Shown here: piece after piece, positions 2,106 through 25,786 of the stretch | Position numbering within the stretch: position 1 is the stretch's first letter | Layout: each line of letters starts with the position of its first letter | Assembly (NCBI GenBank): GCA_023136715.1 | Contig: JAGLQT010000073.1 | Coordinates: forward strand, 1 to 41,436 | Length of the DNA: 41,436 nt | Direction of reading: 5' to 3' | DNA from: Gammaproteobacteria bacterium | GTDB taxonomy: Bacteria; Pseudomonadota; Gammaproteobacteria; SZUA-229 | Made by a program: the position numbers and the translations under genes | The notes under the pieces: generated by a model | Database searches by the model: none | Seen by the model: the letters and a program-made list of their open reading frames with translations, nothing else | What the model was told of the DNA's origin: nothing

Positions 2106-4160
2106 ATGATCAGTTTGAAAACAAAACCAGCCAGACAACAAAAAACAAGGATCGCCTGTAGTTTTATTTTCCTGCTATTTTTTAGCTTTTCCTCTTTAGC
2201 TAATGAAATCACCTTAAACCTTAAAGATGCCGATATTCGCGCCCTTATCAGCACGGTATCAAAATTCACCGGTAAGAACTTCATTATTGACCCAAGAATC
2301 AAGGCCAAAGTCACCGTAGTCTCAGCCAACACCATGTCGCAGGATGAAGTTTATGAAGTCTTCCTCTCGGTGTTGCAGGTTCATGGCTTTGCCGCTGTCA
2401 CCACCGGTTCGGTGATCAAAATCATTCCCGTGGTCAATGCCAAGCAGGGCACAGTACCGCTTACTATTGGCAACAATAACCCTCTCGGTGATGCCCTGAT
2501 TACAAAAGTAGTACGCATGGATCACGTACCGGCAGCACAACTGGTACCAATCTTAAGACCTCTGGTTCCACAACAGGGGCATCTGGCCGCTTATGCGCCT
2601 ACTAACAGTCTGATCATTACCGATCACTCCGGTAACATTCAGCGTCTGATGAAAATTATTGCTGGCGTTGATCGCCCGGAAAGCGATGAACTGGAAGTCA
2701 TCCAGCTCAAACACGCATCAGCCAAGGAACTTGTGAGAATTGTTAACTCTCTATACCAAAAGACCGGTGGTGCTAAAAACGAAGCCAAGAAAATTAATAT
2801 GGCCGCTGATGAACGAACCAACAGCATTCTAATGACCGGTGAACCCAGCGCCCGACTAAAGGCACGCACCACCATTTTGCAACTGGATACCCCCCTGGAA
2901 GATGGCGGCAACACCCACGTCATCTATCTCAAATATGCCAATGCAGAAAACCTGGTCAAGATTCTCACCGGCATCCAGAGCTCGGTAGCCAAGCCATCGA
3001 GCGTGAGAGGGCCTGCAGCCAAAACCGCAGCGGCCAGATCCACATCCAGTGCCTTTTCCCAGAAAGCCGATATTCAGGCTGATGATGACACTAATGCACT
3101 GATTATCACTGCTGACCCGAATACCCTGAAAAGCCTGAAATCGGTCATCCGACAGCTGGATATTCGTCGTGCGCAGGTACTGATCGAAGCCATTATTGCT
3201 GAAATTACCGCTGGTAAGAGCCGTGAAGTAGGTGTAGGCATGGCTGTTGATGGTTCGGAATCCTCCAGTGATAATGTGCCCTTTACTCTGAGCAATTTTG
3301 GTGGTCTGGGCGGTATTCTCGCGGCGGCAGGCGGCAATACCACTGATCTTAGCACCATACTGACACCGGCACTCACACTAGGTGTTGCAGGCACTAATAG
3401 CTCAGGCGTGCGTTATGCACTGTTATTACGAGCACTGGCCACCAATGATGCCAGTAATATCCTGTCTACGCCCAGTATTGTCACGCTGGACAATGAGGAA
3501 GCTGAAATTATTGTCGGTCAAAATGTACCCTTCGTTACCGGTTCGTTCACCAATGCGGGCAGCAGTGATCCCAGCAATCCTTTCCAGACAATCGAACGAC
3601 AGGACGTAGGCCTCACCCTGAAAGTAACACCTCAGGTTAATGAAGGCGATACCATCAAACTTGACCTGGAACAGAAAACGGATAGCGTCATCCCGGGCAC
3701 CGAAGTCACCGGTATTACTACGCGCAAACGCTCGATCAAAACCAGCGTGCTGGTGGATGATGGCGGTATTCTGGTACTCGGTGGTCTGATGGAGGAAACC
3801 ATGAGCGAAGGCGAGAGCAAAGTTCCTTTACTGGGAGACATTCCATTACTGGGCGCCCTGTTCAGATCTACCACATCTAACAAGAGCAAACAAAACCTGA
3901 TGGTCTTCCTGCGACCCAGCATTCTGCGTGACGATACCGACGCTGCCTACATTACCAACGAAAAATACAATTTCCTACGTAGCCAGCAACTACAATTTGA
4001 AGATGAACCCCTGGAGCAACTGGACGATTCAACACCGACACTCGATCCCTTGACTCCAAAAACACTGGATAAAGCACAGGTCAAAAACAAAAAGAAGGAA
4101 GTAATTGAAAACGGAAACGACCTGGATGACGATTGGGATGACAATGACGAATACATCTGA
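2106..4160 (+). CDS. gspD: type II secretion system secretin GspD
   Basis: 684 aa with a signal peptide (...SSLA/NE) and an N0 domain (ITLNLKDADIRALISTVSKFTGKNFIIDP). The secretin core is present (VPLLGDIPLLGALFRS, NLMVFLRPSILRD). AGGA lies 8 nt upstream of the ATG. The C-terminal tail is acidic and low-complexity. Confidence 0.95.
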   Translation: MISLKTKPARQQKTRIACSFIFLLFFSFSSLANEITLNLKDADIRALISTVSKFTGKNFIIDPRIKAKVTVVSANTMSQDEVYEVFLSVLQVHGFAAVTTGSVIKIIPVVNAKQGTVPLTIGNNNPLGDALITKVVRMDHVPAAQLVPILRPLVPQQGHLAAYAPTNSLIITDHSGNIQRLMKIIAGVDRPESDELEVIQLKHASAKELVRIVNSLYQKTGGAKNEAKKINMAADERTNSILMTGEPSARLKARTTILQLDTPLEDGGNTHVIYLKYANAENLVKILTGIQSSVAKPSSVRGPAAKTAAARSTSSAFSQKADIQADDDTNALIITADPNTLKSLKSVIRQLDIRRAQVLIEAIIAEITAGKSREVGVGMAVDGSESSSDNVPFTLSNFGGLGGILAAAGGNTTDLSTILTPALTLGVAGTNSSGVRYALLLRALATNDASNILSTPSIVTLDNEEAEIIVGQNVPFVTGSFTNAGSSDPSNPFQTIERQDVGLTLKVTPQVNEGDTIKLDLEQKTDSVIPGTEVTGITTRKRSIKTSVLVDDGGILVLGGLMEETMSEGESKVPLLGDIPLLGALFRSTTSNKSKQNLMVFLRPSILRDDTDAAYITNEKYNFLRSQQLQFEDEPLEQLDDSTPTLDPLTPKTLDKAQVKNKKKEVIENGNDLDDDWDDNDEYI

Positions 4161-7580: not shown

Positions 7581-8021
7581 TTGAAATCACAAATCAATAC
7601 CATGAAAACACATCAAAGGGGCTTCACCCTGATTGAACTCATGGTTGTTATCGTTATCCTCGGCATTCTCGCCGGTGTCGTCGTCCCCAGAATTATGGAT
7701 AATCCGGACAAAGCACGTGTCGCCAAAGCCAAACACGATATCACGGCACTGGAAAGTGCACTGGATGTTTATCGACTGGACAATTTTGTTTACCCAAGCA
7801 CCGATCAGGGACTGGAAGCATTAGTCACTCAGCCTGGCGAAGCACCAAACTGGAAGTCTGGTGGTTACATCAAAAAACTGAAGAAAGACCCCTGGGGTAA
7901 TGACTACCTCTACCTCAGTCCCGGTCAGCACGGTGAGTTAGATATTTACTCACTGGGTGCCGATGGCGCTCCCGGCGGCGAAGGCGTATTTGCCGATATC
8001 GGTTCATGGGACATTGAATAA
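7581..8021 (+). CDS. gspG: type II secretion major pseudopilin GspG
   Basis: Prepilin motif [20 protein letters not shown] with a GspG-type body ([17 protein letters not shown]). AAGGAG (7567-7572) lies 8 nt before TTG 7581. The alternative ATG 7602 has no SD but gives the usual short leader. Confidence 0.93.
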
Positions 8022-8971: not shown

Positions 8972-9595
8972 ATGCAGTCTTTAAAGCATCATAAAAGCAA
9001 TGGCTTTACTCTCATTGAGCTGCTGATCGCCATCGCCGTATTCGCAGTAATGTCAGTGATGGCTTATGGTGGCCTCAGCCAGATTATCGAAAACAACCAG
9101 CATTCAAAAAAAGAACTGGAGCGACTGCAATCGGTACAGCGTGCCGTTTTAACCATCAGCCGTGATTTCACACAAATCATCGAACGCGATATCCGCGATG
9201 AATACGGCAACCCCCAACCTTTTTTAGACGTCAGCAACGAACTCGATTATTTAGTGGAGTTCACCCGCAATGGACGCCGTAACCCGGCAAAATTAAAACG
9301 CAGCAATCTTTTGCGGGTAGCCTACCAGTTTGAAGATGAAAAACTGACTCGCCTGTTCTGGCCACAGCTGGATAGAGCACCGGCCATGGAAGCTTATGAA
9401 ACCACCCTGCTCGATCAGCTGGAACGGGTTGAATTACGCTACCTGGATAATGCAAATAAATGGCACGATGAATGGCCACCACTCAACCCTCAACAGCAAG
9501 CAGGTGGGAATCCTCCACAACTCTCCGCTATCGAGTTCATACTGGAACTAAAAGGCTGGGGTGAAATCACCCGGCTTTATCAGGTAGGCGGCTGA
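8972..9595 (+). CDS. gspJ: type II secretion minor pseudopilin GspJ
   Basis: Prepilin motif SNG/FTLIELLIAIAVFAVM. 207 aa. The ATG immediately follows the gspI stop. Confidence 0.9.
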   Translation: MQSLKHHKSNGFTLIELLIAIAVFAVMSVMAYGGLSQIIENNQHSKKELERLQSVQRAVLTISRDFTQIIERDIRDEYGNPQPFLDVSNELDYLVEFTRNGRRNPAKLKRSNLLRVAYQFEDEKLTRLFWPQLDRAPAMEAYETTLLDQLERVELRYLDNANKWHDEWPPLNPQQQAGGNPPQLSAIEFILELKGWGEITRLYQVGG

Positions 9596-17515: not shown

Positions 17516-17545
17516 TTCTTTCGCCACTAACACCTTAAAAAAATG

Positions 17546-17570
17546 AAGGGGCTTTATAGCCCCCTTTTTT
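17546..17570. terminator. bidirectional rho-independent terminator between convergent galE and fccB
   Basis: GC stem GGGGC(T)/(A)GCCCC with a 4-nt loop. It is flanked by an A-run upstream and T6 downstream (AAAAAAATGAAGGGGCTTTATAGCCCCCTTTTTT). Confidence 0.7.
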
Positions 17571-17579
17571 GAAATCAAC

Positions 17580-18866
17580 CTATTCCTCTTTGGCGAATGC
17601 ATCAGCCGTAATGGACTTATACCAACCCAAGGCATATTTTGATTCCTGAAGCCGAGTTTTCTTTGAAGCTTTATTCGGACTATCCTTAACCGATACCGCT
17701 TTAATTTTATTATCTTTCAATCGATAAACCGATGCTCGTGAAATAGCATATTTTTTTGACAACAGACTATAGATGCTAGTGCTATAGACCATCTCCGGTA
17801 TAGCCACGCCTCTTATATCAGAGACAATGTTTGCTGCACAAATCTTTGCCTGAGTATTGGCTGCATGCCCCGTTTTTGGCATATCACCCACTATGCTCGC
17901 GTCACCAATTACATGTATATCTTTCTGCTTTAAAGATTCGAATGTTTTCTGATTGACTGGGCACCAGCCATCCTGATCAGTCAAGGCGGTGTTAACAGCG
18001 ATAGTGTTCGCCTGTTGCGGTGGAATAAGATTAACCACTGCCCCCTTAAATTCCTGTCCCGAGCTGGAAAATAATTGCATACTGCCTGCATCCACTCTTT
18101 CGATGCGACCAACATCACTACCACTGACCCATTCGATCATTCCCGGATATAATTTTTTCCACCCCGCCTCAAACAGTGACTGCTTGGCAAAAGTTTTATT
18201 GGAATCCACAATCAGAACTTTGGATTTCGGCTTGGCTTTTTTCAGATAATAAGCGATGAGGCTGGCACGTTCATAAGGAGCCGGTGGCGCACGAAATGGT
18301 TCCGGTGGTGGCGCAATAATAACAACACCGCCATCGTCCATTGCCTGTAGCTGCTTGCGTAATAAAATTGTTTGTTCACCCGCTCGCCATGCATGCGGCA
18401 TGATGTGGCTTGCCTCATCATCATAACCCTTGATCAGGCCCCATCTAAAGCCGATGCCTGGAGAAATAACCAGACGATCATAACTCAGCTTGTTTCCATT
18501 GTTCAGGATAACGATTTTTTTTGTAGCATCAATATCGATAACCGTGTCATTTACCACATGGATTTTATTATGGTCACGCAAGCGATCATAATTATGTGTA
18601 ATAAATTCCATGTCATGCAGCCCTGCCAGCACGGTATTGCTGAACGGACAGGTAACAAATTCTTTTTTTGGTTCGACCAGTGTGACGTCGATAGCCGGAT
18701 CAAAGTGCTTGAGGTAATTCGCACAGGTCGCACCACCAAAACCACCGCCGATAATAACAACTCGGTAAGCGGCTGTTGCACTCGCTCTGATCGGCAAAGC
18801 CAGCATACTTGATGCACTACTGACACCAACAAGCTTGATAAAATCTCTACGGTTTAAATTTCTCAT
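17580..18866 (-). CDS. fccB: flavocytochrome c sulfide dehydrogenase, flavoprotein subunit (FccB/SoxF-type)
   Basis: Tat signal (RRDFIKLVGVSSAS), FAD-binding VVIIGGGFGGATCA, 428 aa. The start overlaps the stop of a monoheme cytochrome gene (ATGA). Confidence 0.88.
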   Translation of the reverse strand: MRNLNRRDFIKLVGVSSASSMLALPIRASATAAYRVVIIGGGFGGATCANYLKHFDPAIDVTLVEPKKEFVTCPFSNTVLAGLHDMEFITHNYDRLRDHNKIHVVNDTVIDIDATKKIVILNNGNKLSYDRLVISPGIGFRWGLIKGYDDEASHIMPHAWRAGEQTILLRKQLQAMDDGGVVIIAPPPEPFRAPPAPYERASLIAYYLKKAKPKSKVLIVDSNKTFAKQSLFEAGWKKLYPGMIEWVSGSDVGRIERVDAGSMQLFSSSGQEFKGAVVNLIPPQQANTIAVNTALTDQDGWCPVNQKTFESLKQKDIHVIGDASIVGDMPKTGHAANTQAKICAANIVSDIRGVAIPEMVYSTSIYSLLSKKYAISRASVYRLKDNKIKAVSVKDSPNKASKKTRLQESKYALGWYKSITADAFAKEE

Positions 18867-19177
18867 TGTTTAGCCTCATAGAAATATTTGGCAAGTAAGT
18901 TAATTTCTTCATCGCTATAGGAGCTGGCGTGTCGATCCATAATCGTTGCTCTTTCCGTACCCTCTTTAAATCCGTGCATGTACTCAGCAAGTTCATGATC
19001 ACTATGATTATCTATGGAAGGAATTCGCTTTGAACCCTGTCCACCAGGGCCGTGACAGGTGACACACATAGTGGCTAACAATGCACCACGATCAATGCCC
19101 TGTGCTGTAGCAGAACTGGAAAACAACAACGCAACAAAACCGACTATTGTAAATAGTTCCTTCATCATTTTTATCAT
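18863..19177 (-). CDS. fccA: flavocytochrome c sulfide dehydrogenase, monoheme cytochrome c subunit
   Basis: 104 aa with a signal peptide and a single CVTCHGPGG heme motif. Translationally coupled to fccB. Confidence 0.8.
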   Translation of the reverse strand: MIKMMKELFTIVGFVALLFSSSATAQGIDRGALLATMCVTCHGPGGQGSKRIPSIDNHSDHELAEYMHGFKEGTERATIMDRHASSYSDEEINLLAKYFYEAKQ

Positions 19178-19231
19178 GATCAGTTACCTCCTTCTGATTT
19201 TTTTGTAAACGATTATTATGCTAGTCCAGAA

Positions 19232-19268
19232 CAAAAAACAGCCGGATGAAAAGTTCCACCCGGCTGTT
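19232..19268 (-). terminator. rho-independent terminator downstream of the cytochrome-porin gene
   Basis: On the minus strand, an ACAGCCGG/CCGGCTGT stem (8-9 bp, 14-nt loop) is followed by TTTTTTGTT. It begins about 30 nt after the stop at 19299. Confidence 0.6.
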
Positions 19269-19298
19269 AATTACCTGCATATTTCGATGCAACCTTTT

Positions 19299-20579
19299 CT
19301 AGAAGCCAACCGCCAGTTGAACCGTCAGGCGATCATCATCATCCGCTGAATCCTGTGCACTCCTGTCCCAAAACTCAACAAAACCTTTTATATTTTGTTC
19401 GAAGTAGTAGGCAACATTTAGCACCAGTTCATCATAGCTATCTGCACCATTATTTTTCTCATAGCTATCGAAACGTATCAGCGGTACCCAGGTTGGTGCG
19501 CCACTGGCCGCTTTAAAGACATGATAAGCCTGAACACTCATCGCATCATTGTCATTTTCGGTACCTGTTTGAGCTGCTGAACCATCATCGCTGGCTGAGA
19601 CAAACATCAACTGTACACGTGTGTTGCCGATATCAGCCTGGGCATCCAGACCAATCCTTGTGTACTCCAGTTCAGCATCAGATGCTGTCTGGTTAGGTCG
19701 TGAAGATACTACTTCACCTACTGCGCCACCGTTACAGTCGGAATCAATATCAACAATATCAGCAGCAGAACAGGTATGAGCAGCAACTTGGCCATTGACC
19801 ATGAAGCCACCAATCATGATGTCCTTGGTAACATCAAAGGCAACACGTGCATGAATCGTACTGGCATCTTTACCTTCTGAAACATCAGTAGAATCAGAAC
19901 CTGCGGGGCTATCAGCCTGAGCAGAAATACCTACACTGTAGAACAACTGATCTATAGGTCTGCCTGTCAATACCAGATTTTGTCTGCGACTGTTTAAGCT
20001 GCCATCGTAGCCATCAAATGCCTGGTTCATCGCACCGGTACCCGCACGGGTCATACGGAAATGAAGACCAAACAGCCCATAGGGATCTGCACGCATCATC
20101 TCCCCCCAGGTAAACTGAAGATTCAAAGCTTTGCTATGGTTATACGCAAGTACAGCCGATGGTATACCAATCTCAAAACCGTATGCATTTTGAGCTTCGT
20201 CCTCTGCTTCCAGTTCAAAGAAACCTGACCAGTTCTCACCGACGGCACCAGCAACAACAATTTCTGCCTCATGCAGAGCACGCGTGTTCGCAGCTTCAGC
20301 GCTGTCTTTCTTGTCATAAGGTCGCGCAAAGATTAAGGCAGAAACACCAACACTATTTTCTTCCGCTAAATCCTTAAACGACATACGATCGCCATCCGGC
20401 ATTCGATAACCCAGCTCTTTGTACACTCGGCCTTTCTTACTCAGCTGAGGCCATGCATTGTGGCAATACGAGCAATTTTTACCCGTATCTCTCGCGAATG
20501 ATGGAACCGCCTCTGCCGTGAGCGTCGCAAATGCGAACCCAACCGCAGTTAATATTGTTACTATGTTTCTTATTTTCAT
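19299..20579 (-). CDS. fused monoheme cytochrome c / outer-membrane beta-barrel protein (Cyc2-like architecture)
   Basis: Signal peptide MKIRNIVTILTAVGFAFATLTAEA. One CxxCH (C36SYCH40) sits in SFARDTGKNCSYCHNAWPQLSKKGRVYKELGY. About 370 aa of amphipathic strand-like sequence follow with no TM helix, ending ...RLTVQLAVGF (C-terminal Phe). GAGGAG lies 6 nt before the ATG. The ORF is near certain; the Cyc2 assignment is moderate. Confidence 0.55.
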   Translation of the reverse strand: MKIRNIVTILTAVGFAFATLTAEAVPSFARDTGKNCSYCHNAWPQLSKKGRVYKELGYRMPDGDRMSFKDLAEENSVGVSALIFARPYDKKDSAEAANTRALHEAEIVVAGAVGENWSGFFELEAEDEAQNAYGFEIGIPSAVLAYNHSKALNLQFTWGEMMRADPYGLFGLHFRMTRAGTGAMNQAFDGYDGSLNSRRQNLVLTGRPIDQLFYSVGISAQADSPAGSDSTDVSEGKDASTIHARVAFDVTKDIMIGGFMVNGQVAAHTCSAADIVDIDSDCNGGAVGEVVSSRPNQTASDAELEYTRIGLDAQADIGNTRVQLMFVSASDDGSAAQTGTENDNDAMSVQAYHVFKAASGAPTWVPLIRFDSYEKNNGADSYDELVLNVAYYFEQNIKGFVEFWDRSAQDSADDDDRLTVQLAVGF

Positions 20580-20936
20580 TAATTACTCCTCGATTTTTTA
20601 TTTTTGATCGAATAACTCCCCCATTGAACAACAAACATCGTTGCTCTAGTACCAATAGTACTCCCAGTAAACCTTATAATCTAATATAGATCAATTAATT
20701 ACCAATTAAACATTAAATAACTTCAGATAGTTAACGCATTTTTTATATGGTATCTAAATAGAGATTGAGCGCTGTTTAGAATAGATTTTTGATCTTTTTT
20801 AACGAGAGAGAATCAACATTCGTTGATCCACCCACAAAGCGAGGTGATTTTTCAGCTCAGCAAACGTGAGCTTTTGAGGAAAGCGCTTTTGTCCTTTTTA
20901 TTATTGCTCACTATCTTACAAGCAATGAACTAACAT

Positions 20937-21782
20937 TTATTTCACGGGCAATAAAGCATTACGTAAATCATAAACAATGCGATGCGTGTTGTGACAACGC
21001 GCGCACACAGTCACAGCAATTTCACCCATTAGTTTCTGACTGTCTTTCACCAATCCTTTACTGATGTTTGACTGTAATATTTCAAGGCGTTGCTGGGTTG
21101 CCTTGCCCAGTATTCGCTCCCGTGGATAGGCATCATTTTTATGACAGGCAATACAACTATCGCCTAGGTTTTGTAACTGACTGGCAAGCGTTTTGCTGGA
21201 TTTCAATGCTACAGGGTTATGACCATCATCCAGCGCAATCAAAATTCGATTAACAGATTCAGATAGCTCTTCCATATTATCTTCAAAACTCTGCTGAGAT
21301 CCGTTGATGCCTTTAAGCTTTAGCTCATCGTAATGAGGTGAACGGTGCATCGCCGTCACCAGTGGCTGATAATCCTGATGACAATCATCACAGGTACGCT
21401 GGATCATTTTCAGTGTTTTAGCAACGCGGGGCGCATCGCCCTTTTCTGCAAACATCTCAAGCTCAGGCAATAATCGGGGCTTAATCTCTTTTTCCCACTC
21501 GGGCACCATATCAGCAATTTTGTTGTAATCTTTCTCTAAACGAGCGATCCACTTTGCCATGCCGGGCTGGTCATTCAATTTGGCATATTCACTAATAGCC
21601 TGCATTTCCCGTCGTAGTTTAAACATAGTATGCAACCATACCTGTCGCTTATTAGCCGGCTTGTACCATTTCTCCAGTGACGCGGGAGGCACATCGATGC
21701 TGACTGCTTTACCTGCATAAGCTGGCACAACACCGGCAGCCAGTACAAAAATTAAAAATAACAAAGCAGAGATAAATTTCAT
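20937..21782 (-). CDS. secreted triheme c-type cytochrome (helical, class II / cytochrome c'-like first domain)
   Basis: The start is taken at M59 of the track ORF, which gives a clean signal peptide (MKFISALLFLIFVLAAGVVPAYA/G). Three CxxCH motifs are present (CDDCHQDY, CIACHKNDAY, CARCHNTHR), each at the end of a predicted helical segment. Confidence 0.7.
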   Translation of the reverse strand: MKFISALLFLIFVLAAGVVPAYAGKAVSIDVPPASLEKWYKPANKRQVWLHTMFKLRREMQAISEYAKLNDQPGMAKWIARLEKDYNKIADMVPEWEKEIKPRLLPELEMFAEKGDAPRVAKTLKMIQRTCDDCHQDYQPLVTAMHRSPHYDELKLKGINGSQQSFEDNMEELSESVNRILIALDDGHNPVALKSSKTLASQLQNLGDSCIACHKNDAYPRERILGKATQQRLEILQSNISKGLVKDSQKLMGEIAVTVCARCHNTHRIVYDLRNALLPVK

Positions 21783-21971: not shown

Positions 21972-22412
21972 ATGAATATTAAAGAATTTATGGCACATGA
22001 CCACAAAGAATGTGACCGGCTTTTTGCCATTGCAGAGAGTGCAGCCGCTAGCGAAGATTGGGATACAGCGACTCAGACATTCAATGACTTTATCCAGGCC
22101 ATGGAACGACATCTTGGTGTTGAGGAAAATGAACTTTTCCCTGCCTTCGAAGAGGCTACCGGTATGACCATGGGACCAACTGAGATGATGCGTTCGGAAC
22201 ATGACCAGATGCGGGTGCTTTTTGCTGAGATGCGTGACGCCATGGAACGCCAGCACAGTGATGACTATCTGGGCATATCAGAAACGCTGTTGATATTGAT
22301 GCAACAACACAATATGAAGGAAGAGCAAATCCTCTATAACATGATGGATCAGCATCTGACAGATGACATCAGCCATTGGCAGCAAAAGTTTCAGGACTGG
22401 GACAAGAGCTAA
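21972..22412 (+). CDS. hemerythrin-domain protein
   Basis: 146 aa with repeated His/Glu cation-binding motifs (HDHKECDRLF, HLGVEENELFPAFE, RSEHDQM, QHNMKEEQILY). GAGG lies upstream. Confidence 0.85.
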   Translation: MNIKEFMAHDHKECDRLFAIAESAAASEDWDTATQTFNDFIQAMERHLGVEENELFPAFEEATGMTMGPTEMMRSEHDQMRVLFAEMRDAMERQHSDDYLGISETLLILMQQHNMKEEQILYNMMDQHLTDDISHWQQKFQDWDKS

Positions 22413-22684
22413 TGCCCAATGAGGTTTTACTGGATGTCAGCGAGCTAGCCCCGCCAGAACCTCTCACCCTGACACTCGAAGCCGCTGAACAACTGCAAGC
22501 CGGTCAATACCTGCGAATGTTGCACCGCCGTGAACCCTGCATGCTTTTCGGCAATCTCGACGACAATCATTTCAAATATTTTCAGCGCAAGGGCGCCATC
22601 TCTGCTGTCGAAGTCTTCATCTGGGCTGAAGATGATAAAGAAGCAGCCGAAGCTGTACAGGCAATAATAGACGCGCAAGACTAG
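22412..22684 (+). CDS. DUF2249-domain protein
   Basis: The start is taken at the ATG overlapping the hemerythrin stop (TAATG). The sequence LDVSELAPPEPLTLTLEAAEQLQAGQYLRMLHRREPCMLF is typical of DUF2249. Confidence 0.75.
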   Translation: MPNEVLLDVSELAPPEPLTLTLEAAEQLQAGQYLRMLHRREPCMLFGNLDDNHFKYFQRKGAISAVEVFIWAEDDKEAAEAVQAIIDAQD

Positions 22685-22689
22685 ATTTA

Positions 22690-23994
22690 ATGCACGCTAA
22701 TCTTTCACTACAGCAAGCTCCTCCCTTTTCCGTACCTGCACGATTTCTGGTCAGCGCCCCGCTGTTTGGCATGGTTGCGGCACTGGTCATGCTCTGGCAC
22801 GGGCCTGAGATGATTAGTCATCGCTGGACGCCTGAACTACTCGCCGTCACCCATTTCCTGACCCTGGGTTTTCTCGCCATGAGTATGCTGGGTGCCTTGA
22901 TGCAACTTATGCCCGTACTCATGGGCATGGTTATTCCACGAGCCATACTTTTTAGCAGCATGGTTCATACTCCACTATTTTTAGGTAGTGCCTGCTTAGG
23001 CCTGGCATGGCTGATTAATATTAACGAACTCTTCATCATTGCAATGGCGTTACTGGGGTTCTCTTTCACGATTTTTATCGTGGTAGTAACCGAGCGTTTA
23101 TTGCGTTCAAAAAATAGACACGTCACACGAAGCATGATGATGCTGGCATTGTTCGCCTTATTCATCACCGCCATTCTTGGTATCTACCTGGCCATGGGCT
23201 ATGCATCAGCAGACTTTTCACTGGCACGGCAATTAACTGATTTGCATTTGAGCTGGGGGCTGCTCGGCTGGGTAGCGCTGCTAATTATGGCCGTTGCCTA
23301 TCAGGTCATCCCCATGTTCCAGATCACCGATGAATACCCGGCCAGACATCAACGTTGGATGGGGTGGTCACTGTTCATCGCCCTGCTCGCCCTGAGTCTG
23401 GCTTATAACTGGCCATCGGAAATACTAAAATCCATCTCACAGATATTCCTCGCCGCCTGTTTGCTGATATTTGCACTCACCACCCTGTGGGTACTTCAGA
23501 CACGCCGTCGCCAGATACCTGACCTGACCATGATGTTCTGGCAACTTGCCATGGTCAGCCTTATTTTGCTGATACTGGCCTGGGCGATAGCCACATTGAT
23601 GAATTTTGATTTACCGGTACTACTGGGCGTACTGATCATTCACGGCTTCGCCATGACCACCATCACAGGCATGATGTATAAAATCATCCCCTTTCTTATC
23701 TGGTTACACCTGAGCACGCGTAATAAAAATTTACGTGACAAAGGCGAGAGAACTTCACAGGTAAAAGTGCCGCACATGCGAAAAATTATTCCGGAGGCCG
23801 CTGGCCTATGGCAATTTCGCCTTCATTCGATCAGCCTGGTATTGCTGATCCTGGCTGCCATCTGGCCAGACTGGTTTTTTTATCCAGCCACCTTAGTATT
23901 TTTCATAGCTCAGACGGCATTATTCTTTAATTTATCAAAGGCCGTTTATTTTTATAATGCAAAGATTGCTGAACTTGAAACTCAGCAGTCTTAG
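22690..23994 (+). CDS. 12-TM integral membrane protein with a threefold internal repeat (possibly NnrS-like); function unknown
   Basis: 434 aa with about 12 hydrophobic helices. The motif G-[FW]-x6-[GA]-x3-[QK]-x-[MI]-P occurs with identical spacing at residues 60-75, 193-208 and 319-334, each preceded by a His (H55, H186, H318). It starts 5 nt after the DUF2249 gene. Confidence 0.6.
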   Translation: MHANLSLQQAPPFSVPARFLVSAPLFGMVAALVMLWHGPEMISHRWTPELLAVTHFLTLGFLAMSMLGALMQLMPVLMGMVIPRAILFSSMVHTPLFLGSACLGLAWLININELFIIAMALLGFSFTIFIVVVTERLLRSKNRHVTRSMMMLALFALFITAILGIYLAMGYASADFSLARQLTDLHLSWGLLGWVALLIMAVAYQVIPMFQITDEYPARHQRWMGWSLFIALLALSLAYNWPSEILKSISQIFLAACLLIFALTTLWVLQTRRRQIPDLTMMFWQLAMVSLILLILAWAIATLMNFDLPVLLGVLIIHGFAMTTITGMMYKIIPFLIWLHLSTRNKNLRDKGERTSQVKVPHMRKIIPEAAGLWQFRLHSISLVLLILAAIWPDWFFYPATLVFFIAQTALFFNLSKAVYFYNAKIAELETQQS

Positions 23995-24062
23995 TTACTG
24001 TGACATATTGACCATTAAGGTTAAAATACAAAAAAAATATAACTAACCATCTACAACTTCCT

Positions 24063-24446
24063 ATGAACCAACTAGACGAATTAATACAACAAATAAAATC
24101 CAGACCTGAAAGCATCGAATTTCAGGACGTCATTAAGCACATCGATAAATCCTATGATTACACCCCTACCCAGTTTAGCAATGGCAATGCTGACGATTGC
24201 GTCACCAGCAAAGCAGGAGAGAATGAAGGCTCCTGTAAAATCTTTGCTTTCGGCTTGCTGAACAAGCTTGACGAAATACAAACCCTGAACTGCTTCGGCC
24301 AATATTATCGTGATGACGTATTGAAACACCCGGAAAACACAGATCATGCGAACATTCGCACTTTTATAAAACATGGCTGGAAAGATATAGTCTTTGACAA
24401 CATTGCACTAAAAAAACTGCATGATAAAAACATAGGCACCGCATAG
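24063..24446 (+). CDS. HopJ-family protein
   Basis: 127 aa. IEFQDVIKHIDKSYDYTPTQFSNG...GENEGSCKIFAFGLLNKL...YYRDDVLKHPENTDHANIR matches the HopJ type III effector family as recalled. Confidence 0.7.
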   Translation: MNQLDELIQQIKSRPESIEFQDVIKHIDKSYDYTPTQFSNGNADDCVTSKAGENEGSCKIFAFGLLNKLDEIQTLNCFGQYYRDDVLKHPENTDHANIRTFIKHGWKDIVFDNIALKKLHDKNIGTA

Positions 24447-24484: not shown

Positions 24485-25786
24485 CTATAAACCGCCTTTA
24501 CCTGTTGTTTTAACAATCAGCCAGGTAGCACCTATAGCAACAAGCAATAAAGCCGCCGCTGCCGCAACATTATTTAATAATTGTGGCGACACAAGCAGCA
24601 TTGACCCCAGCAGCAACATCATCACACCAGACAATAACTTTAATACCATTCCCTCGTGCTCAGAAAGTTTTCTTGAGCCCAGCTTCACAGTGAACAAAAC
24701 AACAATACTCAATAAAGGCAAAATATAAATCAGGTTATAAAGAACTAAATACAAATAATAACTTTCAGCGGGCAACGACCTTAAAGTCAAAATTCGTGTA
24801 TACACCATGGGAAACCCAGCCGTACACAATAGTTCATAACTATTTGCAACCACAGCTAAAACAATCGTAGCCGCCATAACTGTTGCCATTGAATCCAGAC
24901 GTAACAAGTTACGCATACGATCAAACAGCTTTGGCTTTGCATCATCAGAAATACTCAATGAAAAACCTTTTTTAAACCAGAAAAAGTCTTTGATATTTAC
25001 TAGCGCAATAAGAATAGCAATACTACCTGCAATTAATGTAATTAAACGCAGCTCACCTAAATAGATAAACAAATTTAACCAGGCCGCCATAAATAAAAAA
25101 TAGATAGCGCCTGAAAAAAATACAAAAACCCCGCCAATTAGTGCCATCCTGCTCCGACTTCGAGCGTGTACCATCATGCTAAGCAGAAACAGCAATACGA
25201 AAAAAGCACAGGGATTAAAGGCGTCCATGCCAGCAATAAGCACGGTTAACACAGGCAGGGAATAATTATCTGAGGATATATTACCCAATACGGGTATATC
25301 CACCGACGTTAATTCATTCTGATCAAATGTAAAGAGAATCCCATTATCAGGCTCATATTCTTTAGCAAACTGATAACACGCCTGCAAATGTGCTCTCAAC
25401 AACTGCCCAGTTGTTTTTTGGCTGTCATAACCCGTAATTGAGTTCCCGCAAAACATAAATGCCGGCACCGTATTTGCTTCACCGCCAAGTCGTGCCGCCA
25501 TATCAACAAAAGTTTTAACATTTTCCTGATGATGCACTAACTCTAAGGAATGCAGTTTCAACCATGGATACTCTTTATCCATCTCAATAATATCGGGTTG
25601 AGCCTGCAAACAATGAGGGCATTTTTCCGACCAGAAAAAATATAGGTGAATAATCGGCTGTTCATTGATATCTTTTTCATACCAGACAGGTTCACTTGAA
25701 GCTAAAGCATTAGTAACTGGCGAAACAAAGAGAACTAATACAATTAGTAAAAGCACACCAATTTTTTTGATTTCACCTGCGATCAT
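24485..25786 (-). CDS. thioredoxin-fold domain fused to a CcdA/DsbD-like multi-pass membrane thiol-disulfide transporter
   Basis: Signal/anchor sequence, then a periplasmic Trx-like domain with CPHC (FFWSEKCPHCLQAQPD). About 8 TM helices follow with membrane-embedded Cys motifs (DAFNPCAFF and ELLCTAGFP), as in CcdA/DsbD cores. Confidence 0.7.
   Translation of the reverse strand: MIAGEIKKIGVLLLIVLVLFVSPVTNALASSEPVWYEKDINEQPIIHLYFFWSEKCPHCLQAQPDIIEMDKEYPWLKLHSLELVHHQENVKTFVDMAARLGGEANTVPAFMFCGNSITGYDSQKTTGQLLRAHLQACYQFAKEYEPDNGILFTFDQNELTSVDIPVLGNISSDNYSLPVLTVLIAGMDAFNPCAFFVLLFLLSMMVHARSRSRMALIGGVFVFFSGAIYFLFMAAWLNLFIYLGELRLITLIAGSIAILIALVNIKDFFWFKKGFSLSISDDAKPKLFDRMRNLLRLDSMATVMAATIVLAVVANSYELLCTAGFPMVYTRILTLRSLPAESYYLYLVLYNLIYILPLLSIVVLFTVKLGSRKLSEHEGMVLKLLSGVMMLLLGSMLLVSPQLLNNVAAAAALLLVAIGATWLIVKTTGKGGL

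Follow-up and report, generated by a model that had tools for sequence, protein, structure and literature searches.

Cyc2 is the main marker for neutrophilic iron oxidation; little is known about its partners in the periplasm and about how it is connected with the quinone pool, and its role in sulfur-oxidizing lineages is not settled. The family is defined by a signal peptide, one CXXCH heme site with AXPXFAR[Q/K][T/Y] before it and PXL after it, a length of at least 365 residues and a 16-strand porin; Fe(II) oxidase activity has been shown for three Cyc2 proteins, distant from the clade studied here (Keffer 2021, PMC8406198). On inactive sulfide chimneys, Woeseiaceae and other Gammaproteobacteria are reported to have Cyc2 homologs, which were also seen in their proteomes; the idea that such homologs may give sulfur-oxidizing Gammaproteobacteria access to Fe(II) or metal sulfides has already been put forward (PMC6850669). 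Flavocytochrome c sulfide dehydrogenase (FCSD), the roles of whose three cysteines have been described, has a disulfide, Cys161–Cys337, adjoining the flavin; in the related sulfide:quinone oxidoreductase (SQR), replacement of the corresponding cysteines by serine abolishes activity (PMC3504083). Proteins of the NapC/NirT family connect the quinol pool with periplasmic proteins in both directions, and both they and the tetraheme/iron-sulfur/NrfD sets commonly serve to connect carriers of the periplasm with the quinone pool (PMC13390463). Here we describe a locus in which a cyc2-like gene is followed by fccA and fccB. It is situated in a gammaproteobacterial contig of 41,436 bp (JAGLQT010000073.1, assembly GCA_023136715.1), further referred to as the window. 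We give somewhat better than an even chance to the reading that this cassette (17518–20947, minus strand) is a Cyc2-based electron path having a cysteine-less flavocytochrome as its periplasmic partner, and is not a sulfide dehydrogenase.

The original prediction had joined four consecutive minus-strand genes for exported redox proteins into one candidate outer-membrane-to-periplasm electron-uptake module. The open reading frames (ORFs) were confirmed at the coordinates given there: a triheme cytochrome (20937–21782, 281 aa, ATG at 21782), a fused monoheme cytochrome-porin (19299–20579, 426 aa), the monoheme class-I cytochrome c FccA (18863–19177, 104 aa, with a Sec signal) and an FccB-like flavoprotein (17580–18866, 428 aa). 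The ratio of nonsynonymous to synonymous substitution rates (dN/dS) relative to the 84%-identical locus L001 equals 0.07–0.16 across the four genes. Such purifying selection shows that all four are real genes.

The cytochrome-porin contains only one CXXCH site, CSYCH at residues 36–40. Its signal peptide, MKIRNIVTILTAVGFAFATLTAEA followed by VPS, was assigned by eye and from the N-terminal helix of the structural model. The N-terminal sequence reads AVPSFARDT-GKN-CSYCH-NAW-PQL. AVPSFARDT agrees with the published motif AXPXFAR[Q/K][T/Y] in eight of nine positions, the ninth being Asp in place of Gln or Lys; the consensus before the heme site in 73 relatives is AVPSFARK. The PXL motif (PQL) is present four residues past CXXCH, and its P44 and L46 are invariant in the 73 sequences. 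Several relatives linked to fcc genes have FAA or FAT, without the motif arginine, and would therefore be discarded by the published motif filter. The AlphaFold2 model, built on the alignment of relatives, has 16 long strands, with a mean predicted local distance difference test score (pLDDT) of 84 and a predicted template modeling score of 0.83. In a Foldseek comparison of this model with PDB, 16-strand porins (OmpT, OmpF, PorB) scored on top, and OprP (2o4v) had rank 22. Searches against Pfam and NCBIfam yielded no model for this protein, only one chance match below the threshold; neither collection has a Cyc2 model. The protein search produced 201 homologs, which come from Woeseiaceae, Acidiferrobacterales, Thiotrichales (including Thiomargarita and Parabeggiatoa), Ectothiorhodospiraceae, Hydrogenovibrio, Nitrospirota and Emcibacter. 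Judging by the heme-site motifs and the model, we assign the protein to the Cyc2 family as a predicted outer-membrane cytochrome-porin, in agreement with the barrel expected earlier.

Most members of the family are shorter by about 40 residues than the window protein and its closest relatives, in which two acidic Ser/Asp-rich insertions (residues ~215–235 and ~270–300) account for the extra length; one of the insertions contains a pair of cysteines (HTCSAADIVDIDSDCNGG). The confidence of the model is lower in these regions, which are probably surface loops.

The next two genes encode the subunits of a flavocytochrome c. Their coding sequences overlap by 4 nt. FccB, expected to be exported by the twin-arginine translocation (Tat) pathway, indeed has a twin-arginine leader (NRRDFIK), and it matches the Pfam domains FCSD_central (PF21706, 2e-45), FCSD-flav_bind (PF09242, 2e-15) and PF07992 (6e-15). 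Among solved FCSD flavoproteins it is aligned over the full length with 5n1t_A (phmmer, 1e-150), and 1fcd_A and 3vrd_B are also found. The FAD-binding motif GGGFGG (GGGxGG type) is invariant. The cysteine that binds flavin adenine dinucleotide (FAD) covalently, Cys42 of Allochromatium vinosum (YYTCYLSN, 1fcd_A), corresponds to C73 in the window (FVTCPFSN) and is kept in all relatives. FccA, for its part, has a single heme motif (CVTCH), as predicted, and matches Pfam Cytochrom_C and Cytochrome_CBB3. Its best PDB match is 5n1t_B, the monoheme FCSD subunit (9e-16), followed by the N-terminal domain of 1fcd_C. Since the closest solved relative of FccA is 5n1t_B, the pair is a true flavocytochrome c homolog.

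Both cysteines of the redox disulfide are, at the same time, replaced. In the Cys161 position PFRCPPGPYERAS is changed to PFRAPPAPYERAS, with Ala193 in the window protein, and in the Cys337 position NTCYSIL is changed to STSIYSLL, with Ile365. The same holds for every Cyc2-linked FccB covering these positions, that of Emcibacter included: Cys161 is replaced by Ala or Gly, and Cys337 by Ile, Phe, Val or Thr, while Cys42 is kept. We aligned the window protein with its 120 closest FccB clusters. Both cysteines are absent from 81 of the 121 sequences, and 40 are canonical. Under the thresholds applied, the two groups are told apart consistently by positions 193 and 196 only, position 365 having lost Cys and being variable (I/F/V/T), and the search for a replacement catalytic residue revealed no new conserved cysteine in the cysteine-less clade. 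Hence the FAD and heme scaffold is retained. The dN/dS value of fccB, 0.07 in comparison with L001, excludes decay of the gene. In the neighbor-joining tree constructed without the two diagnostic columns, cysteine-less FccB proteins form one group. The earlier label of sulfide dehydrogenase is thus doubtful: from its sequence, the protein is a homolog of the sulfide dehydrogenase flavoprotein from which the enzymatic label should be withdrawn.

The loss of the disulfide goes together with the presence of a cyc2-like gene. We selected seven loci with cysteine-less FccB solely for long contigs and sequence diversity (L147–L152, L156). In each of them a Cyc2-like gene and then fccA precede fccB. 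These Cyc2-like genes encode 384–394 aa, with the heme motif CSYCH in six cases and CSSCH in one; one copy is cut by the contig end. Canonical FccB loci served as a control. They come from a scan of metagenomes for which a mixed alignment of FccB proteins was the query; the matches listed comprise 80 loci, each retaining the two cysteines of the disulfide and 78 also Cys42, and 51 of them have at least 900 bp of upstream DNA. No Cyc2-like gene was found upstream of canonical FccB in these 51 loci (Fisher's exact test for 7/7 vs 0/51, p = 3e-9). Ten more pairs of Cyc2-like and FccB matches from two protein searches have longest contigs of identical size, which is suggestive only.

The order cyc2-like, fccA, fccB is retained at Cyc2-like identities of 84% (L001/L002), 72% (L004), 57%, 50% (L005/L006) and ~36–44%. 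Five more loci with the same trio at ~40–44% identity (L013, L028, L057, L035, L063) were found among 60 GTDB genome loci through the alignment of Cyc2-like proteins. In L007 and L008 the contigs end inside fccA. The genes upstream of the trio are unrelated between loci, being the triheme gene in one context, cob genes in another and APH/NTP-transferase in a third. Comparison with L153, a 166-kb contig with the same backbone as the window, points to the mobility of the trio. According to blastn, window positions 25700 to 20948 correspond to L153 2075–6835 (72% identity), and positions 17517 to 13000, to L153 6874–11362 (78%). The 3,430 bp between them (17518–20947), which comprise the three genes with the upstream region and the terminators, are absent from L153. 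This segment is therefore an indel, since both flanks in L153 are only 38 bp apart. The trio behaves as one movable unit.

A complete four-gene cassette is present at positions 8001–11461 of L035 and L063, which are Emcibacter sp. metagenome-assembled genomes (MAGs) from Alphaproteobacteria. A published study of inactive sulfide chimneys reports that this genus is abundant there together with Gammaproteobacteria carrying Cyc2 (PMC6850669), and the Emcibacter cassette is consistent with horizontal transfer within this habitat. Several cassette carriers come from hydrothermal or cold-seep samples. Given these habitats, the occurrence of the cassette in both Gamma- and Alphaproteobacteria and the co-report from chimneys, we infer that a trait of importance for the weathering of minerals has spread horizontally.

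The usual fourth member in relatives, not foreseen in the earlier four-gene view, is a NapC/NirT-type (PF03264) tetraheme gene. It directly follows fccB in ten loci (L005, L013, L035, L057, L063, L147–L150, L156) and encodes proteins of 181–198 aa with an N-terminal membrane anchor. In L152 (2569–5060), the cysteine-less fccAB pair is followed by genes of a c3-like tetraheme cytochrome, a 4Fe-4S protein (Fer4) and an NrfD-type membrane subunit, which replace NapC; this locus ends with a NapC-like gene in the opposite orientation. Neither the NapC/NirT-type gene nor the NrfD set follows fccB in the window and L001, and no NapC-like match was found anywhere in the window.

Sister clades of Cyc2-like proteins also carry a periplasmic cytochrome right after the cyc2-like gene, and by this analogy FccA–FccB fills the slot of the periplasmic partner. 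In Thiotrichales loci the next gene encodes a c-type diheme cytochrome of 203–209 aa, and in L012 and L020 it is followed by a NapC-like gene. The order cyc2-like, diheme, NapC/NirT-like is seen around positions 9185–10518 of L012 (Thiomargarita) and 1815–3031 of L020 (Thiotrichaceae). A NapC-like gene is also found 3' of the cyc2-like gene in L043 (around 3457–3981) and L047 (Thiohalobacter, around 1048–1963). The N-terminal half of the diheme proteins of L012 and L047 is weakly FccA-like. The layout of these four loci is the same three tiers with the flavoprotein missing. In Woeseiaceae and Acidiferrobacterales (L010, L011, L015–L018, L023, L025, L029, L038), a triheme cytochrome of 235–273 aa is encoded 9–108 bp after the cyc2-like gene. 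It consists of three repeats of ~70 aa (F.KRCS.CH ... W.H.V.RM..KAP.W.S..EA) and appears to be a clade-specific periplasmic partner of the Cyc2-like protein.

Taken together, these data suggest the following path. By its sequence and model, the surface component is a Cyc2-family outer-membrane barrel of 16 strands with one N-terminal c-type heme. Homology shows the other two products to be a periplasmic flavocytochrome c formed by the Sec-exported monoheme FccA and the Tat-exported FccB-like protein; according to the alignment, the FAD fold and the covalent-FAD cysteine of the latter are kept, and the redox disulfide, which performs the oxidation of sulfide in FCSD, is lost. Because of this loss, the flavocytochrome would be no classical sulfide dehydrogenase; it may instead exchange electrons with Cyc2 as its partner in the periplasm, heme and flavin acting as a relay or a buffer. 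The next component, in most relatives, is an inner-membrane quinol dehydrogenase of the NapC/NirT (CymA) type, and in one relative, a tetraheme protein with iron-sulfur and NrfD subunits. Since the next gene in relatives encodes a quinol dehydrogenase, the full module would join the cell surface to the quinone pool. Inward flow seems slightly favored: Cyc2 would oxidize Fe(II) or some other soluble reductant, and the electrons would pass to the periplasm and then to the quinone pool. We favor this direction because the characterized Cyc2 proteins are all Fe(II) oxidases, ImoA/CymA operates in this way in Sideroxydans, and the habitats are sulfide minerals and sediments. Outward flow is possible.

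The non-coding parts of the cassette agree with the earlier description in that a hairpin separates cyc2-like from fccA and a gap precedes cyc2-like. The first feature (listed at 19228–19268, minus strand) is a terminator-like hairpin at 19237–19268 with a 14-bp stem, including seven G-C pairs, followed by a T-run, TTTTTGTT. The z-score of its minimum free energy is −4.0. A strong hairpin 3' of the cyc2-like gene was found in all seven loci folded, Emcibacter included, with differing sequences. It is thus no accident of this contig and is probably a conserved partial terminator or an mRNA-stabilizing stem, which probably sets a high ratio of Cyc2 to flavocytochrome expression. The A+T-rich region of 357 bp upstream of the cyc2-like gene (20580–20936, minus strand) lies inside the indel except for the distal ~11 bp and is presumed to be the promoter region of the cassette; a consensus scan placed no promoter-like sites in it. 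At the other end, fccB is followed by a bidirectional terminator-like hairpin (17546–17565, detected on both strands), and then by a convergent galE-like gene.

Several observations weigh against this electron path. The window copy is a shortened, three-gene form with no NapC-like gene, and therefore the part concerning the quinone pool is not directly applicable to the window locus, whose relay must pass electrons to carriers encoded elsewhere. The terminator-like hairpin parts cyc2-like from fccA, so that independent transcription is possible. The window Cyc2-like protein has Asp in the Gln/Lys position of the published motif. Fcc-linked Cyc2-like proteins form two neighboring groups and no robust single clade: a single clade was seen in the neighbor-joining tree of 56 sequences, and it failed after five sequences were added, when a long Hydrogenovibrio branch intruded and the bootstrap recovery became 0/50. 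The cysteine-less FccB clade is weak as well, being recovered in just 14 of 30 bootstrap replicates. The loss of the disulfide is not proof that all sulfur chemistry is lost, and a direct reaction between the flavin and a nucleophile could take place. The Cyc2 heme has a potential near +200 mV, so that delivery of electrons to quinone would be approximately isopotential or uphill (Keffer 2021, PMC8406198). Finally, the members of the cassette are known from genes alone, and the carriers found are all uncultured MAGs or metagenome contigs.

An alternative is a flavocytochrome that still oxidizes sulfide or another sulfur nucleophile, such as polysulfide, thiosulfate or sulfite, through a cysteine-independent flavin mechanism, the Cyc2-like protein being an outlet to an extracellular acceptor or a substrate pore. 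Sulfur oxidation would then be wired to the outer membrane, as in the second suggestion of the original prediction. Both subunits are indeed close to solved FCSD (1e-150 and 9e-16 for 5n1t chains A and B), the FAD motifs and the covalent-FAD cysteine are invariant, NapC-type proteins mostly send quinol electrons outward, and the carriers belong to lineages with many sulfur oxidizers and were sampled at sulfidic and hydrothermal sites. We nevertheless regard such an enzyme as rather unlikely here: both cysteines adjoining the flavin are gone across the whole clade with no new conserved cysteine in their stead, the corresponding Cys → Ser replacements inactivate SQR (PMC3504083), and those Cyc2 proteins that have been characterized oxidize Fe(II) and do not act as outlets. 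A tentative variant, to which we assign about one chance in four, treats cysteine-less FccAB as an unrecognized class of periplasmic flavocytochromes, in which the flavin has a role without counterpart in known Cyc2 pathways: it would gate or split electrons between Cyc2 and NapC/CymA, or perform a new cysteine-independent reaction coupling the turnover of iron and sulfur chemically.

At the opposite extreme, the adjacency might be meaningless, if two independent systems, an iron oxidase of the Cyc2 type and an fccAB paralog in decay, happen to share a mobile segment. The cassette is an indel found at different genomic sites in different lineages, the hairpin separates its first two genes, and the NapC-like gene is already gone from the copy in the window, all of which one would expect from such a segment. 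Yet the gene order is kept over two proteobacterial classes down to ~36% Cyc2-like identity, the association is 7/7 vs 0/51, and the cysteine-less state occurs in diverse clusters (81/121); together with the purifying selection on fccB this makes chance adjacency very improbable. Even less credit, close to none, can be given to the initial proposal that all four genes, the triheme one included, form one electron-uptake module beside a working sulfide dehydrogenase. The genes are adjacent on the same strand, all products are exported redox proteins, and the arrangement is kept in the close relatives L001/L002. Synteny, however, largely refutes this module: the triheme gene occupies the same site without the cassette in L153 and L154 and another context in L155, it is missing near cassettes below 84% Cyc2-like identity, its family is wider and more conserved than the cassette, it is not homologous to the triheme partner of Woeseiaceae, and the flavoprotein has no catalytic disulfide. 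The proposed test of co-occurrence and synteny thus came out in favor of cyc2-like, fccA and fccB, whose order is kept in distant Gammaproteobacteria and Emcibacter, and against the triheme gene.

The triheme protein is a neighbor of the cassette and not its member. Its heme motifs are CDDCH, CIACH and CARCH, and the start giving 281 aa agrees with the 281-aa homologs. Pfam Cytochrom_C_2 matches 49 of 52 members of the family. The AlphaFold2 model is all-alpha (pLDDT 95), and its domains superpose on cytochrome c' 1cpr (first domain, root mean square deviation 2.7 Å over 117 columns) and on b562. The whole-chain fold search against PDB gave nothing significant, the matches to alpha-catenin being generic helical bundles, and the Pfam and NCBIfam matches to DmsE and MtrC are weak, far below the cut-off and centered on CXXCH. 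Based on its sequence and model, we classify it as a probable tandem class-II (c'/c556-like) cytochrome. A protein search gave 702 matches, of which the best 120 clusters all have at least 72% identity, and a separate count gave 214 clusters at 50% identity; the family is much more conserved and widespread than the Cyc2-like family and the cassette. We considered homology with the triheme partner of the cyc2-like gene in Woeseiaceae and rejected it (blastp E ≥ 0.005; profile score at most 12.6 bits, with matches to the CXXCH surroundings only).

The triheme gene is located beside the trio in L001/L002 only, and no cyc2-like or fcc genes were found beside its other copies (L153, L154, L155). 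In L153 and L154 it is positioned at the same backbone site as in the window, and in L155 its context is unrelated. In L153, the genes of a HopJ protein, a 437-aa membrane protein, DUF2249 and hemerythrin are on one side, and the triheme gene, the galE-like gene, a gene of the metallo-beta-lactamase fold and type II secretion genes are on the other. In the window, divergently from the triheme gene (21972–24446, plus strand), hemerythrin (146 aa), DUF2249 (102 aa), a 434-aa multi-pass membrane protein without a Pfam match and a HopJ-family protein are encoded. The same string is seen in L001 (4679–7157), L153 (3307–5802) and, in part only, L154 (65–789), so that at least three related lineages share its pairing with the tandem c'-like triheme gene; this hints at a unit for sensing or detoxification of gases or oxygen/NO. 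Farther along the window (24485–25786, minus strand), a 433-aa protein has a thioredoxin-like CPHC motif in its N-terminal part, and many membrane helices are predicted beyond it. Pfam gave no match to it, and the NCBIfam thioredoxin match is weak. It may be a fused thiol-disulfide oxidoreductase/transporter, and as such would bear on the maturation of periplasmic cytochromes.

The organism had been taken for a sulfur oxidizer, which is not established by the window: no sox, dsr or sqr genes are present among its ORFs that were scanned for families or are syntenic with annotated L001 genes, the scan covering ~7.5–40 kb. Those scanned or syntenic have housekeeping functions or belong to type II secretion.

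The conserved string of cyc2, flavocytochrome and NapC/CymA genes offers a concrete, testable pathway for the link between Cyc2 and the quinone pool. If cysteine-less FccAB is indeed an unrecognized class of flavocytochromes, the four-gene module of relatives would represent a new way for marine bacteria of sulfide minerals and sediments to exchange electrons with the outside, one that is passed on horizontally. Metagenomic surveys use fccB as a marker of sulfide oxidation. As 81 of 121 aligned sequences have no catalytic disulfide, fccB counts may overstate the potential for this process, and, should such a class exist, a sizeable share of environmental fccB matches would be unrelated to it. 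Our literature search, whose coverage did not extend to most subscription journals, found no description of the cyc2/fccAB/NapC combination or of a cysteine-less FccB tied to Cyc2. The parts (Cyc2, the FCSD fold, NapC/CymA) are of known kinds, and, as far as this search shows, their combination and the cysteine-less FccB clade are undescribed.

Compared with known Cyc2 proteins (Cyc2 of Mariprofundus ferrooxydans PV-1 and Acidithiobacillus ferrooxidans, Cyt572 of Leptospirillum), the window protein has the same signal peptide, single N-terminal CXXCH, PxFAR-type motif before the heme and PxL after it, a length of ~400 aa and a 16-strand barrel, and its homologs occur in lineages with reported Cyc2 (Woeseiaceae, Acidiferrobacterales, Thiotrichales, Nitrospirota). 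It differs from them by Asp in place of Gln/Lys, and several fcc-linked relatives, by the missing Arg; moreover, the known genes have been described alone or with Cyc1/c4-type partners, not with a flavocytochrome and a NapC-type gene. FccAB resembles FCSD of A. vinosum (1FCD), Thermochromatium tepidum (3VRD) and Thioalkalivibrio paradoxus (5N1T) in the fccA–fccB pair, the Tat leader, GGGxGG, the covalent-FAD cysteine and the monoheme subunit akin to 5N1T_B. Unlike FCSD, it has Ala and Ile in the positions of Cys161 and Cys337 (Gly, Phe, Val or Thr in relatives), and the cysteine-less form is preceded by a Cyc2-like gene (7/7), whereas canonical fccAB is not (0/51 controls). The triheme neighbor is similar to class II cytochromes (c', c556) in Cytochrom_C_2 and in the heme motif at the C-terminal end of the helix bundle, and differs from them in having three hemes in one 281-aa chain of tandem bundles with no whole-chain PDB match.

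Conduits of the MtrAB/MtoAB/PioAB type consist of a 26-strand MtrB/PioB-type barrel around a DmsE/MtrA-family decaheme cytochrome, whereas the barrel of the cassette has 16 strands and one fused heme, and no decaheme gene is present at the locus. The carrier is a flavocytochrome of the FCSD type, in contrast to MtoD/STC or the fumarate-reductase-type FccA of the Mto and Mtr systems, and the window copy differs from CymA-linked conduits by the missing NapC-like gene. The full-length relatives, on the other hand, are like MtoAB-MtoD-CymA/ImoA of Sideroxydans and CymA-FccA/STC-MtrCAB of Shewanella in that an outer-membrane heme-porin, a periplasmic carrier and a NapC/NirT tetraheme protein stand side by side. 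The periplasmic carrier of Shewanella is likewise a flavocytochrome.

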